Shown one piece after another: positions 2,947-62,828 of a DNA stretch of 64,000 nt. The translations under genes and the position numbers were made by a program. The notes below the pieces were generated by a model, which ran no database searches, was not told the DNA's origin, and was given only the letters and a program-made list of their open reading frames with translations. Origin of the DNA: Octopus vulgaris (Eukaryota); assembly GCA_951406725.2 (NCBI GenBank), contig OX597837.1, positions 23,312,001 to 23,376,000 on the forward strand, given 5' to 3'. Every line of letters starts with the position of its first letter. Positions within the stretch are counted from its first letter, which is position 1.

Positions 2947-2979
2947 TGTCAACTGGTTTCACTTTCGCTAATCATGACA
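2947..2979 (-). ncRNA. Minimal type I hammerhead ribozyme, A3:U8 core variant
   Basis: TGTC-ATGATTA-GC GAAA GT-GAAA-CCAG-TT-GACA. Confidence 0.6.
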
Positions 2980-3037
2980 TTAAAATTATTTTAATCATGT
3001 ATTTTCTTAAGAAAATACGTAATTAAAATAATTCTAA

Positions 3038-3070
3038 TGTTATGATTAACGAAAGTGAAACTGGTCAACA
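3038..3070 (+). ncRNA. Minimal type I hammerhead ribozyme, A3:U8 core variant
   Basis: TGTT-ATGATTA-AC GAAA GT-GAAA-CTGG-TC|AACA; predicted cleavage after 3066. Confidence 0.65.
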
Positions 3071-3789
3071 AACACAATATAAAATATGTTAAAAAATATA
3101 TTAAAACTATGTAAAATGTGTGCATTTTCCTTCTTTAATTTCTTATATGTATTACAACTCACCCCATGGGGATATATACATGTGTGTGTATGTATATATA
3201 TATATATATATATATATATATATATATATATATATATTTATATGTATTTATATGTATATGTATATACATATATGTTAGATATATTGATGTAATGCTTGCA
3301 TTGATCAATTAAATGGAGCCGCTTGAAATGGATATAATGCACTAATACCTGGACATCCTTGTTACTTATTTGCTTTTTATACATATACATATATATGTAT
3401 CATTTAATATACACAATATTTAAATACAAGTTACTAATAGTTTGCTGCTGTGGAAAAATAATAATTTAGCAGATTTATATGTCAAGCCTTGTGTTTGAAT
3501 ACACAACACTGGTCTAATTTGAAAAACAGAATGCTTGCCTATGAGAAAACAAGAGGAAAAAAAGAGAAGGTGGATGTAAAAGGTGGTACAAGAAAACAAA
3601 AGGTGAATAAAAACATAAAAAGAAAGAAAGGAAAGAAAACCAAGTGTTGTGTCCCCTTTGTCCACCAAAAGTGGGGATAAGATAATCCAATGAGGAGAAG
3701 ACCAAAGGGTTTTATTCTCCACTTTGGCAAAAGGAACTTATCCATGTCCTTGTATTTACTAAAAATGCTGGATCTGGAATTAAGCAGTG

Positions 3790-4003
3790 TTGGTTTCAAA
3801 TTTTGGCACAAGGCCAGCAGTTTTGTGGGCAGGGTTAGTCAATTACATCAATCCCAGTACTCAACTGGTACTTATTTCATCAACCTCGAAAGGTTGAGAG
3901 GCAAAGTCGACCTCGGTGGAATTTGAACTCAGAATGTACAGATGAACAAAATGCCATCAAACATTTTGTCCAGTGTGTTAACAATTCAATCAGCTTGCCA
4001 CCT
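3790..4003 (-). mobile_element. SINE family B
   Basis: Reverse complement of the family B core. Confidence 0.8.
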
Positions 4004-4224
4004 TACGACACATAGCATAATGCTTGTAGCAACTGACTTTACTGAAAGCATCAGCCACAACATAAATCTTCCATCAATCACATTGACTTAAAATCAAAGA
4101 CACAAGGCAATGCAGCTGGTTTTGGAAATGCATATGACATTGCTAAGTCCCTCTTCCTTACAGTAAGTGAATTGATATAAATAAAAATAAAAAAAACGAT
4201 CGATATAAATAAAAATAAAAAAAA

Positions 4225-4634
4225 GGCGCAGGAGTGGCTGTGTGGTAGGTAGCTTGCTAACCAACCACATGGTTCCGGGTTCAGTCCCACAGCGTGGCAT
4301 CTTGGGCAAGTGTCTTCTACTATAGCCCCAGGCCGACCAATGCCTTGTGAGTGGATTTGGTAGACGGAAACTGGAAGAAGCCTGTCGTATATATATATAT
4401 ATATGTGTGTGTTTGTGTGTCTGTGTTTGTTCCCCTAGCATTGCTTGACAACCGATGCTGGTGTGTTTACGGTTCCCGTCACTTAGCGGTTCAGCAAAAA
4501 GAAACCGATAGAATAAGTACTGGGCTTACAAAAAAGAATAAGTCCCGGGGTTGAGTCGCTCGACTAAAGGCGGTGCTCCAGCATGGCCGCAGTCAAATGA
4601 CTGAAACAAGTAAAAGAGTAAAAGAGAGAGAGAG
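4225..4634 (+). mobile_element. SINE family A, young full-length copy
   Basis: tRNA-like head (TGGCTGTGTGG; GGTTCAGTCCC), CORE-like CATCTTGGGCAAGTGTCTT, internal (TA)/(TG) microsatellite, AGTAAAAG tail. Confidence 0.95.
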
Positions 4635-4805
4635 ATCAAATATAATATATACTAATCTATTTGATGTCTCCCAACAAATGGCAACCATGGAAGCTTACTT
4701 AATCTAACTGCAACCAGTTTTGAATGTTATTTCTTTATCTCAGGCTTTATCACTGTTATCAAGTCTCCTTTATAAATACTTTTTATCATATTTTTTCTCT
4801 CCATG

Positions 4806-5287
4806 TATGTGTGTGTGTGTATGTGTATGCGTGTGCATCTTTGTATGTAAGTATGTACATACACACACATATATATATATACATACATTCATACATATAT
4901 ATATATACATATATGTATATATATATATATATATGTATATATATATATATATGTTTATATATATATGTATATATATGTATATATATGTATATATATGTAT
5001 ATATATATATGTATATATATGTATATATATATGTGTATATATATAAATATATATGTGCATATATATATACATACATACATATACATGTGTATAAATTCAT
5101 TGGGGTATAAAAACCTGGTATATACTATATTAATCACGTCCACAGATACTGAAGTAGTAAAATGATTTGCTCACTTCATTTTTGATCTTTGTCATTCTGT
5201 CTATCTATCTATCTATCTATCTATCTATCTATCTATCTATCTATCTATCTATCTATCTATCTATCTATCTATCTATCTATCTATCTA
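4806..5287. repeat. (TA)/(TG) compound microsatellite and (CTAT)n
   Basis: Visible dinucleotide and tetranucleotide arrays. Confidence 0.9.
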
Positions 5288-5334
5288 TGCGTGTATATAT
5301 ACATATATATATGTGTGTGTGTGTATGTGTTTGT

Positions 5335-59983: not shown

Positions 59984-60359
59984 TTTTTACTTGTTTCAGT
60001 CATTTGACTGCGGCCATGCTGGAGCACCGCCTTTAGTCGAGCAAATCGACCCCGGGACTTATTCTTTGTAAGCCCAGTACTTATTCTATCGGCCTCTTTT
60101 TGCCAAACCGCTAAGTGACGGGGACGTAAACACACCAGCATCGGTTGTCAAGCAATGCTACGGGGACAAACACACACATACATATATATATACATATATA
60201 CGACAGGCTTCTTTCAGTTTCCGTCTACCAAATCCACTCACAAGGCATTGGTCAGCCCGAGGCTATAGCAGAAGACACTTGCCCAAGATGCCACGCAGTG
60301 GGACTGAACCCGGAACCATGTGGTTGGTTAGCAAGCTACTTACCACACAGCCACTCCTG
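59984..60359 (-). mobile_element. SINE family A, young
   Basis: Consensus match. Confidence 0.95.
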
Positions 60360-60578
60360 TATGTATTTTTATATTTTTTTAATTCATTTAATGGTTCCAT
60401 TTAACAGACTGTGTACATGCTGGAGCACTGACATGAAGGGATTAGCTACTAATACACCAGGATTTATTTTTAAGTCAGGCACTTACTTTATCAATCACGT
60501 TTTGCTGAATAGCTAAGCCATGGAGATGTTAAGAAACAAAGCCACTTGTCAAGTGGTGCGTGATAAGTACACACACAC

Positions 60579-60966
60579 ATCAGTTTGGTAAGAAAGTTCT
60601 TGGACACTTTTAACATATCACTTTACTAACAATTAAAAAAACAATAAAAAACAATAAAAAACAATCAAACCAAAAGATAATCCCCCTTGTTATTGATCAC
60701 CTTTTGCTATCATTCGGCCAAAGTTTTGAATCCTTTCATCTAGAAATCACGTGGCTTTGAATCAATAAAGTCATAAAGGAATGATTTCACATCTTCTTTG
60801 TTTCCGAACTCTATATCGCCAATCGCTCATTGCAAGGCAGAGAATAAGTGGTAGTCAGAAGGGGCAAGGTCAGGAAAATACGGTGGGTGCACCATAATCT
60901 CCCAGCCTGCCTCCTTCAGCTTCTCTGACATCTTCTTTGCACGATGTGCTGGTGTGCACGATGAGG
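60579..60966 (-). mobile_element. Mariner 3' fragment
   Basis: PAHRAKK...GWEIMVHPPYFPDLAPSDYHLFSAL. Confidence 0.85.
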
Positions 60967-61062
60967 AAAGGTCAATTTGTTAGAAAAAACAAAGGAAAAT
61001 CACTACATCAGGTAGACATAGACACAGAAACATATACACACACATACACATATATATATATA

Positions 61063-61287
61063 TTTCTTTACTGCCCACAAGGGGCTAAACATAGAATGGA
61101 CAAACAAGGACAGACAAAGGGATTAAGTCGATTACATCGACCCCAGTGCGAAACTGGTACTTTATTTATCGACCCCAAAAGGATGAAAGGCAAAGTCGAC
61201 CTCGGTGGAATTTGAACTCAGAACGTAACAACAGACGAAATACCGCTAAGCAGCCAGGAGTGCTAACGTTTCTGCCAGCTTGCCGCC
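61063..61287 (-). mobile_element. SINE family B, next to a family A 5' half (61297-61460)
   Basis: Consensus match. Confidence 0.9.
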
Positions 61288-61849
61288 TATATATATACGA
61301 CGGGCTTCTTTCAGTTTCCTTCTGCCAGATCCACTCACAAGGCTTTGGTCGGCCCGAGGCTATAGTAGAAGACACTTGCCCAAGGTGCCACGCAGTGGAA
61401 ATGAACCCGGAACCATGTGGTTGGTAAGCAAGCTACTTACCACACAGCTACTCCTGTGCCCTATATGGATATACACATGTATGTATATATACATGTGTGT
61501 GAATAACAAAAACTAAACACAGAGAATAAGTAAACTGCACAGAGCAAAGAAAACAGCAACATAGTCACCAATTTCCTTTTATCAGCTGAAGGTCATTACA
61601 ACAGGATTGCTTGCCTAACTGTGCTAGAATATCTACTACAAATGCAACTAGGAAATGGTGTATTGAAAACAGGATGAGAAAATGATTTGGAAAAGTGAAG
61701 CAGAAAGACAACAAATACTGGAGAATATATAAAAAATTATGTAAAAGTAGGTATAACAAATATTTAAGCTTATCATCTTTATAAAAGAGATATGGGAAAA
61801 TAAGACAAACAGACAGGTGACAAAAAGCATTAACTTTTTGGCATTTAAA

Positions 61850-62118
61850 CTGGCCAGCATGTAAAAAGCACCGTCCAATTGTGGTCGTTTGCCAGCTTCG
61901 TCTGGCACCTGTGCAGGTGGCACGTAAAAAGCACACGCACTACACTCACGGAGTGGTTGGCGTTTAGAAGGGCATCCAGCTGTAGAAACATTGCCAGATC
62001 AGACTGGGTCTGGCGCAGCCTTCTGGCTTCCCGGACCCCAGTTGAACCGTCCAACCCATGCTAGCATGGAAAGCGGACGTTAAATGATGATGATGATGAT
62101 GATGATGATGATGATGAT
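61850..62118 (+). mobile_element. Family C 3' part
   Basis: GGTGGCACGTAAAAAGCAC...(ATG)n. Confidence 0.9.
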
Positions 62119-62496
62119 ATTCATCCCAAATATTCTACCTGTTTTATGTTCAAACTGACCAGTTTCAGCCTCTCATTCCTACCCTACAAAGCCATTTAAA
62201 AAGAGAACAACCACATTATGAAAATCTTCAAATTTTCAAATTTTGGTACAGAGCAAGCAATTTTGAGAGGAGGGGAAGTCATTTATTACAGTGACCCATG
62301 ACCCCACCAACACTTCACTGTTTATTTATTTTATCGGCATGGAAAAGATGAAAGGCAAAGCTGACCTTAACAGAATTTGAACACAGAATGTAATGATGGA
62401 GAAAATGCTTCGTAGCATTCTGTCTGGCATGGTAATAGTCCTGCCATCTCACAGCTTTCTTGAAATTATGAGATAACGCATGATTATTTCAAAACA

Positions 62497-62828
62497 TTAC
62501 GGAGATGTACTTACATAGCAAGTGACCAGATCTGAGATCGAGTACTGAAACGAAAACAATTGCAGTGTGGAAGATGTTTGTAAGTCATTTAAGAAACACA
62601 CAAAAACCGTTCGATTCACTTCAACATTTAAATTTAATTTGTCAAAATATTTTCATCACTTTAAGACCGCGATCTGTTCACTGACAAAAATCCGTGGTCA
62701 GTGAACAGGTCGCGGTCTTAAAGCGACGAAAATATTTTGACAAATTAAACTTAAATGTTGAAGTGAATCGAACGGTTTTTGTGTACTTCTTAAATGGCTT
62801 ACAAACACCTTCCACGCTGCAATTGTTT
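62497..62828. mobile_element. Fold-back with G3:C8 hammerheads on both strands (copy 3), nested in a piggyBac-like MITE (62120-62890)
   Basis: Minus HHR 62638-62688 (stem II ATCGC/GTGAT); plus HHR 62697-62741. Confidence 0.85.

Follow-up and report, generated by a model that had tools for sequence, protein, structure and literature searches.

Hammerhead motifs in Penelope-like elements and retrozyme-like units of Octopus vulgaris pair core positions 3 and 8 in four Watson-Crick orientations

A stretch of 64,000 nucleotides of the Octopus vulgaris genome (assembly GCA_951406725.2, contig OX597837.1, positions 23,312,001 to 23,376,000; hereafter the window) carries motifs of the type I hammerhead, located in terminal repeats of Penelope-like elements (PLEs) and in retrozyme-like units. 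Across families, core positions 3 and 8 form a Watson-Crick pair in all four orientations. The motifs, the pairing within families, the link of family F1 (C:G), F8 (U:A) and F4 (A:U) to PLE reading frames, and the grouping of the A:U family with U:A sisters are direct observations. From the sequence comparisons, we consider it likely (probability about 0.68) that the pairing was maintained by selection for a slow, dimer-dependent self-cleavage in the source lineages. The genome measures 2.8 Gb in ~30 chromosome-scale contigs, and the window is rich in microsatellites and repeats. Family labels F1–F9 were coined in the present analysis.

Hammerhead motifs and the 3:8 pair

The hammerheads of the initial annotation were confirmed where it had placed them. 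In terms of the position of N3, these are 31527 (+) and 26310 (-) with the core CUGAAGA, 17226 (+) with UUGAGAA, 3042 (+) and 2975 (-) with AUGAUUA, and 14983 (-), 34603 (-), 34640 (+), 62681 (-) and 62701 (+) with GUGAACA. A strict type I descriptor that left positions 3 and 8 free gave eight matches in the window, all eight with a Watson-Crick pair at 3:8, while 20 shuffles of the window gave on average 0.2 paired and 0.9 unpaired matches. The strict descriptor recovered 17226 (+), six other listed sites that are not C:G, and one motif at 32942 (+) that the annotation had not listed. Three annotated sites escaped it: 14983 (-), which has one stem I mismatch and was recovered by a relaxed scan, 31527 (+), because its stem I is weak, and 26310 (-), because G12 has been lost.

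The majority states of F1–F5 show the features of the type I fold, namely three helices, U4, G5, A6, N7 and A9 with G12, A13 and A14, the A15.1-U16.1 pair, and H17. The exceptions are the window copy at 26310 without G12, the weak stem I of F1, and F2, in which U4 is replaced by C in 10 of 27 copies (L116-L140). The annotated constancy of U4, G5, A6 and A9 holds for F4 and F5, which keep their other core letters, but U4 is not fixed in F2. The U4-to-C change is known from viroids.

Within families, the 3:8 state is highly uniform. It was G:C in 70 of 73 copies of F5, A:U in 54 of 59 copies of F4, and U:A in all 33 copies of F3, and C:G in all copies of F2 (27/27) and F1 (23/23), where copies are best-match loci of a genome search and hence biased to intact cores. 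In F3, N7 varies freely (G 21, T 8, A 3, C 1) while the 3:8 pair holds.

This pattern is further supported by a blind sample of 1.2 Mb (120 stretches, each of 10 kb, taken at round positions), scanned with a relaxed descriptor that ignores positions 3 and 8. The scan gave 27 matches, of which 25 were Watson-Crick; the other two were low-scoring A:A and U:G. At a score of at least 7, 23 of 23 matches were paired (11 C:G, 7 U:A and 5 G:C), and the 1.2 Mb held no intact A:U match at this score. The family members in the sample agree with their families at 3:8 (F5 8/8, F4 2/2, F3 1/1). Shuffled versions of the sample (n = 12) yielded 1.75 matches, 0.42 of them paired, or 1.25 and 0.25 for the good matches, and seven decoy cores gave 1–5 matches each with 0–1 paired. 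At a score of at least 9, there were 20 real matches and 0.17 per shuffled 1.2 Mb. Extrapolation to the genome gives ~54,000 intact motifs, of which ~28,000 are not C:G.

All DNA examined contained 138 distinct matches in 22 clusters, which exclude F1 and the family of 32942. Of these clusters, 21 are paired at 3:8, with 15 C:G, 4 U:A, 1 G:C and 1 A:U, next to one G:U singleton; none of 200,000 permutations, in which relatedness was ignored, paired as well. Thus, the family alignments and cluster counts bear out the annotated covariation of 3 and 8 in all four orientations, and the consensuses of F3, F4 and F5 do not revert to CUGANGA. Two further claims went too far. Families do not each have a core of their own, since 15 of the 22 clusters are C:G and 4 are U:A, with one family each for G:C and A:U. 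Similarly, a search limited to CUGANGA would miss about half of the motifs, not most of them, because non-C:G states make up 12 of the 23 good blind matches and 6 of the 21 paired families.

Penelope-like elements with A:U, U:A and C:G pairs

In the window, F4 consists of two ends of a decayed Neptune-type PLE, both truncated on the 5' side, that meet head to head in a palindrome beside a (TA)n run (2879..3174; delimited from genome copies). The motif scan found two 33-nt A3:U8 hammerheads in it. The one on the plus strand (3038..3070; N3 3042, C17 3066) has a helix II of 2 bp and reads ACTGGT in helix III, where the family has ACCGGT; the one on the minus strand (2947..2979; N3 2975) is decayed at CpG sites. 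Longer F4 copies elsewhere extend upstream into a decayed GIY-YIG frame, with the motif ~290 nt behind it. This frame is 53–58% identical to that of F8, a young Neptune-type family with a U3:A8 pair, intact 811-aa frames and many near-identical copies.

F4 and F8 both have a 2-bp helix II and an ACCGGT helix III, and their hammerheads lie in the terminal repeat behind the GIY-YIG frame. Both have a CX4CxxC linker before the C-terminal GIY-YIG domain, and F8 has a DKG motif, features shared with the Neptune clade as far as the accessible text of Craig et al. (2021, PMC8557442) describes it. The linker, endonuclease and DKG motifs suggest that F4 and F8 are of Neptune type, although the same linker occurs in Nematis. 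A first look at F8 (L311-L314) gave ~19,000 candidates, the youngest form of which has A17 and an altered loop II.

In an endonuclease tree of 14 sequences, all from families of this genome, F4 (support 98) falls inside a clade (support 100) that also contains F8 and four further U:A lineages, and the outgroup reads C:G. The order of 3:8 states would then likely be C:G to U:A to A:U.

The window copy of F1, a young autonomous PLE of Hydra type, is truncated at the 5' end (28614..31838, plus strand; from genome copies and frames); its GIY-YIG frame ends at 29422, and the copy terminates in (TA)n. Its hammerhead lies behind the reverse transcriptase/GIY-YIG frame, in the terminal repeat (3' pseudo-long terminal repeat; 31520..31637, plus strand; motif scan). 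It has a C3:G8 pair (N3 31527, C17 31630), a structured helix II of 85 nt, and helix III ACAGCTGT. Stem I consists of 2 bp, two U-U mismatches and then 3 bp. The whole element is ~5.6 kb long and encodes a reverse transcriptase with a C-terminal GIY-YIG domain. Its copies L142-L145 contain RWR, DKT, CNCRNKNKC (CxCX5C), CSLC (CxxC) and CIH (CxH), and target (TA)n; three F1 frames matched no family in Pfam.

These motifs and the (TA)n insertion point to a Hydra-type element. DKT, RWR, CxCX5C, CxxC/CxH and (TA)n insertion are shared with the Hydra clade in the accessible text of Craig et al. (PMC8557442); the RWK that defines the clade appears in F1 as RWR, and the other Hydra motifs are present. 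In contrast, the length of F1 exceeds the 'under 3 kb' described there, and its helix II is 85 nt long. The best 40 matches to F1 are all (40/40) 100% identical over 176 nt and often form inverted pairs 1–6 kb apart. F1 is very young.

Palindromic mini-insertions with a G:C pair

F5, the family with the GUGAACA core, occurs in the window as three palindromic mini-insertions delimited by arm analysis. The first (14798..15106) has one full arm with a tail on the minus strand and a second arm that ends at GAAA. Its hammerhead (14940..14990, minus strand; relaxed scan) combines G3:C8 with an extra G after A9 and helix III AATATT (N3 14983, U17 14947). The second (34420..34732) has a tail of ~55 nt on one arm, and G3:C8 hammerheads at 34560..34610 (-; N3 34603, U17 34567) and at 34633..34683 (+; N3 34640, U17 34676), the latter equal to the family majority. 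The third (62496..62828) carries a G3:C8 hammerhead with a CpG-decayed helix II at 62638..62688 (-; N3 62681) and one with a stem I shortened by 5' truncation at 62697..62741 (+; N3 62701). These last four were found by the strict scan. F7, a probable sister of F5, is represented by a palindromic copy (34046..34367; arm analysis) that has lost the core; elsewhere it reads U3:A8.

The F5 unit of ~210 nt has a sharp 5' start, an extra G between A9 and G10.1, U17, and (TA)n flanks. The extra base after A9, the G10.1-C11.1 pair, the one-sided tail, the inverted arm and the (TA)n flanks are PLE-like traits (cf. PMC4209133, PMC8557442). With 8 loci in the 1.2 Mb of the blind sample, F5 would account for ~19,000 insertions (95% range 8,000–37,000). 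The arms begin sharply at GAGATG, 20–24 nt before the core, and the tail ends in the complementary CATCTC (34420-34732, L001-L030); the sharp start may represent a transcript start or a terminal stem. The tail opens a short frame whose peptide resembles that of the F7 tail frame (0 of 5000 shuffles, for a pair picked after the likeness had been noticed).

Possibly, F5 is a ~210-nt piece that a PLE enzyme would copy beginning close to the start of a PLE frame and stopping at a fixed 5' end. One-sided tails are explained by reverse transcription that initiates internally, according to the accessible part of Frangieh et al. (2024, PMC11167929). We also considered F5 as a tandem circle and rejected this, because the arms from 30 loci have no adjacent direct repeat. 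As a weak test of the F5 core, four runs listed no variant at 3% or more. One F5 insertion occurs with identical flanks on two chromosomes (L198 and L263), probably by segmental duplication.

The palindromic copies of the window carry their two motifs on opposite strands. They are probably inert, because read-through RNA would be expected to fold into one long hairpin.

The near-perfect inverted repeats of F4 and F5 might also be read as DNA transposons akin to miniature inverted-repeat transposable elements, in which a hammerhead match arose by chance. The Rfam results could be taken in the same sense, since the window had no hammerhead above the gathering cutoff or among the 150 of 322 matches listed, and three motifs had none at E<=10. 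Yet, the missing match is a matter of model coverage, and an Rfam match is not a defining feature of the hammerhead fold. Moreover, the arms of these repeats face each other head-to-head around centres that vary, the tail is on one side only, F4 runs on into a PLE frame, and high-scoring matches are far rarer in shuffled sequence (0.17 against 20). We therefore regard this explanation as highly improbable.

Retrozyme-like units

F3 is a retrozyme-like unit on the plus strand (16989..17493; from genome copies). Its 5' arm (16989-17169) is inverted, its tail is one-sided, and (TA)n flanks the insertion. The motif scan found in it a type I hammerhead of canonical size (17220..17262; N3 17226, C17 17256) with U3:A8, a 6-bp helix I, a 4-bp helix II, and helix III ACATGT. 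A subfamily has ACGCGT in place of ACATGT and C11.1 in place of U11.1. F2 is an old retrozyme-like unit, of which the window holds a partial copy on the minus strand (26133..26346; from genome copies). Its C3:G8 hammerhead (26273..26314, minus strand; N3 26310; motif scan) is decayed, with a helix III one base short and AAAA instead of the annotated GAAA. Position 12 among 26 F2 copies is G in 13, A in 6, C in 1, and unparsed in 6. Likewise, the F2 helix III is ATCACGTG(G/A)T and not the ACGT annotated initially.

Elsewhere, F3 monomers of 359 bp (L048, L050, L060) and F2 monomers of 360 bp (L132) stand in direct tandem. Both are non-coding, have a unit length within the ~170–400 nt expected of retrozymes, and contain one canonical type I hammerhead per unit, with a 6-bp helix I and a 4-bp helix II. 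These properties agree with those of non-LTR retrozymes (LTR, long terminal repeat) in the accessible text of Cervera and de la Pena (2020, PMC7229834) and of Li, Clavereau and Pollet (2026, bioRxiv 10.64898/2026.07.22.740005), and we suggest that F3 and F2 belong with them. F3 differs from those descriptions in its U3:A8 pair and in the PLE hallmarks of its insertions (inverted 5' arm, tail, (TA)n). The insertion at 16989-17493 thereby provides sequence evidence that PLE enzymes move retrozyme-like units.

Thus, as the initial annotation had it, the motifs represent hammerhead folds, which belong either to PLEs or to units probably mobilised by them. Its description of non-autonomous mini-elements needs correction for 31527 (F1) and for 3042 and 2975 (F4), which are 3' ends of PLEs with open reading frames; 17226 and 26310 belong to retrozyme-like units.

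Selected cleavage or relaxed relics

In the mechanism that we favour, two units would pair through the palindrome of helix III. Each active site would then combine the core, helix II and GAAA of one unit with the UH and the 3' half of stem I of the other, and the 3:8 pair would form solely in this active fold. The pair has been kept through two independent double transversions, and there is no successful mismatched family, which argues for selection on cleavage in the source elements.

Several observations weigh against this reading. The G:C and A:U states occur in one family each, so that each represents one evolutionary event and thousands of copies are not independent support. The node that nests F4, by pairing it with a U:A lineage, has a support of 74. 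For N300, N268, N148, N100 and N170 in the tree, the hammerhead state was judged by eye from one decayed copy each, and no state is assigned to two leaves. An A3:A8 mismatch is present in one young, near-full-length copy of F8, the G:U singleton scored 8.5, and stem I of F1 is weak despite near-identical copies. The cleavage site is not the start of any of 20 F1 copies, nor of any of 20 F5 arms taken from the window and the blind sample. The DNA likeness of F5 and F7 does not by itself reach significance (91 of 1000 shuffles). The search for an autonomous parent of F5 was also negative: a genome search with the 31-aa tail peptide gave 15,374 candidates, of which 150 were scored and 20 with long open frames inspected, and all 20 run into microsatellite or unrelated flank. 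Furthermore, cleavage was dispensable for insertion in vitro and RNA ends were not found at the site, as far as the accessible text of PMC11167929 reports, and 8 of the 9 Xenopus dimers tested failed to cleave according to that of bioRxiv 10.64898/2026.07.22.740005.

An alternative explanation might be that these families are relaxed relics. Their ancestors worked, but self-cutting would have been lost in the G:C and A:U families, drift or a fading constraint would have fixed the swaps, and mobility would proceed on uncleaved RNA. The single event behind each of the two states, the absence of insertions that begin at the cleavage site, and the Xenopus and in vitro results would fit this explanation, as would U17 in F5 and the 2-bp helix II of F4. 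Drift, in contrast, predicts mostly single changes and mismatches, whereas no multi-copy family is unpaired at 3:8. In addition, the three stems and the remaining core letters are retained in F4 and F5, and near-identical copies with intact frames are numerous in F8, which pairs U:A and likewise has a 2-bp helix II. The lack of 5' ends at the cleavage site is not diagnostic, since a religated circle would likewise retain the entire motif. On balance, we consider relaxed relics unlikely and prefer selected cleavage in the source lineages.

A stronger version of selected cleavage can also be formulated. Here, the 33-nt A3:U8 hammerheads with a 2-bp helix II and the G3:C8 hammerheads would be active natural ribozymes that survived double transversions, PLE mobility in vivo would need cleavage, and more than 20 co-resident families would keep their dimers private by a selection-driven barcode of helix III and stem I. 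This combination seems doubtful to us.

Dimer specificity

The initial annotation further suggested that family-specific cores and palindromes might restrict dimers to one family; taken as an explanation, both would have been selected to block dimers between families. The core cannot choose a partner, because in the double-hammerhead model C3 and G8 are contributed by one strand. Palindromes are diverse, with 17 distinct ones among 23 family representatives, 4–10 nt long, too weak to serve as helix III of a monomer, and with a Watson-Crick central pair in 19 of 23, although the descriptor itself demanded self-pairing. Several nevertheless recur: ACAGCTGT and ACATGTGT each occur in three families, ACCGGT and ACGCGT each occur twice across different cores, and ACCGGT is common to the A:U family F4 and its U:A sisters.

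Only 13 of 253 family pairs could cross-pair in helix III (5 if restricted to Watson-Crick pairs). Of these 13, 4 could also form stem I across families at one site and 1 at both, which would suit a dimer code. Cross-family dimers would thus be mostly excluded, by way of stem I, which differs between families, but plain divergence of stem I would yield the same exclusion without selection. Hence, we see little reason to expect a selected dimer code, and rate it well below relaxed relics.

Other hammerheads and repeats of the window

The unlisted hammerhead on the plus strand (32936..33066; strict scan) has a CUGAUGA core with C3:G8, a helix II region of 100 nt, ACAGCTGT as helix III, and A17, and belongs to a separate repeat family. 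Its repeat (32750-33120, plus strand) has a partial second copy, 92% identical and inverted 2.3 kb away (35389-35648, minus strand), and the F7 and F5 inserts sit between the two. C3:G8 hammerheads with helix II insertions of 45–100 nt and 8-nt palindromes form a recurrent class (L038, L028, L072, L148, L199, L260, L267, L270, L306, L314, and 31527 in the window), which short-loop-II descriptors would overlook.

A decayed GIY-YIG fragment (36829-37080, plus strand) is 32% identical to the F1 endonuclease. By eye, the open reading frames at 51582-52046 (-), 42386-42712 (+) and 40679-41137 (-) resemble tails of long interspersed nuclear elements and a piece of a Tc1/pogo-type transposase.

Comparison with known hammerheads

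The PLE hammerheads of PMC4209133 are similar to ours in their type I topology, short palindromic helix III, frequent U17, and inverted pairs on opposite strands. They also include an extra base after A9 with G10.1-C11.1, as in F5 and F7, and U3:A8 families in Schistosoma. Motifs with such a short palindromic helix III are thought to act as dimers (PMC4209133, PMC6765202). In contrast, the alignment of 56 representatives in PMC4209133 has CUGA cores and three UUGA cores, without G3:C8 or A3:U8, and, unlike F4 and F8, none of the representatives has a 2-bp helix II.

Compensatory change at 3:8 is itself established. Natural hammerheads show covariation of the C3-G8 core pair to U3-A8 (Perreault et al., 2011, PMC3088659), and U3:A8 has been published for phage, bacterial and Schistosoma hammerheads (PMC3088659, PMC4209133). 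As far as the accessible text of PMC3088659 goes, only the change from C:G to U:A is named there, whereas both transversion swaps occur here in high-copy families. In the PLE hammerhead of the anole element Poseidon, C3G/G8C partly restores cleavage in vitro (Frangieh et al., 2024, PMC11167929). G3:C8 in a PLE hammerhead is therefore common to both studies, but in the sections of PMC11167929 available to us it is a partially active laboratory mutant, whereas in F5 it is the natural state.

In the accessible portions of the literature searched, G3:C8 and A3:U8 appeared only as laboratory mutants (PMC3884650, PMC11167929), and natural cases were not found, although Lunse et al. (2017), Hammann et al. 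(2012), Seehafer et al. (2011), Przybilski and Hammann (2007), Nelson and Uhlenbeck (2008), or supplements, may list them. The available text of PMC7151607, PMC11014351, PMC10085705, PMC7229834 and PMC13282606 names no natural G3:C8 or A3:U8. The natural G3:C8 and A3:U8 families are a well-supported variant on comparative grounds, with cleavage as a prediction.

Implications

Both the RNA class and its tolerance of a 3:8 swap were already known, which limits the surprise of our results. For the annotation of this genome, descriptors confined to CUGANGA overlook about half of the intact hammerhead copies. For the biology of PLEs, Penelope hammerheads may or may not need to cut, since their cleavage in vitro is slow and, in one study, insertion did not require it. 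F4 versus F8 and F5 versus F7 offer ready-made natural test pairs in this respect. Natural swaps covering all four orientations, including one that separates sister families in a protein tree, provide comparative evidence for selected catalysis.

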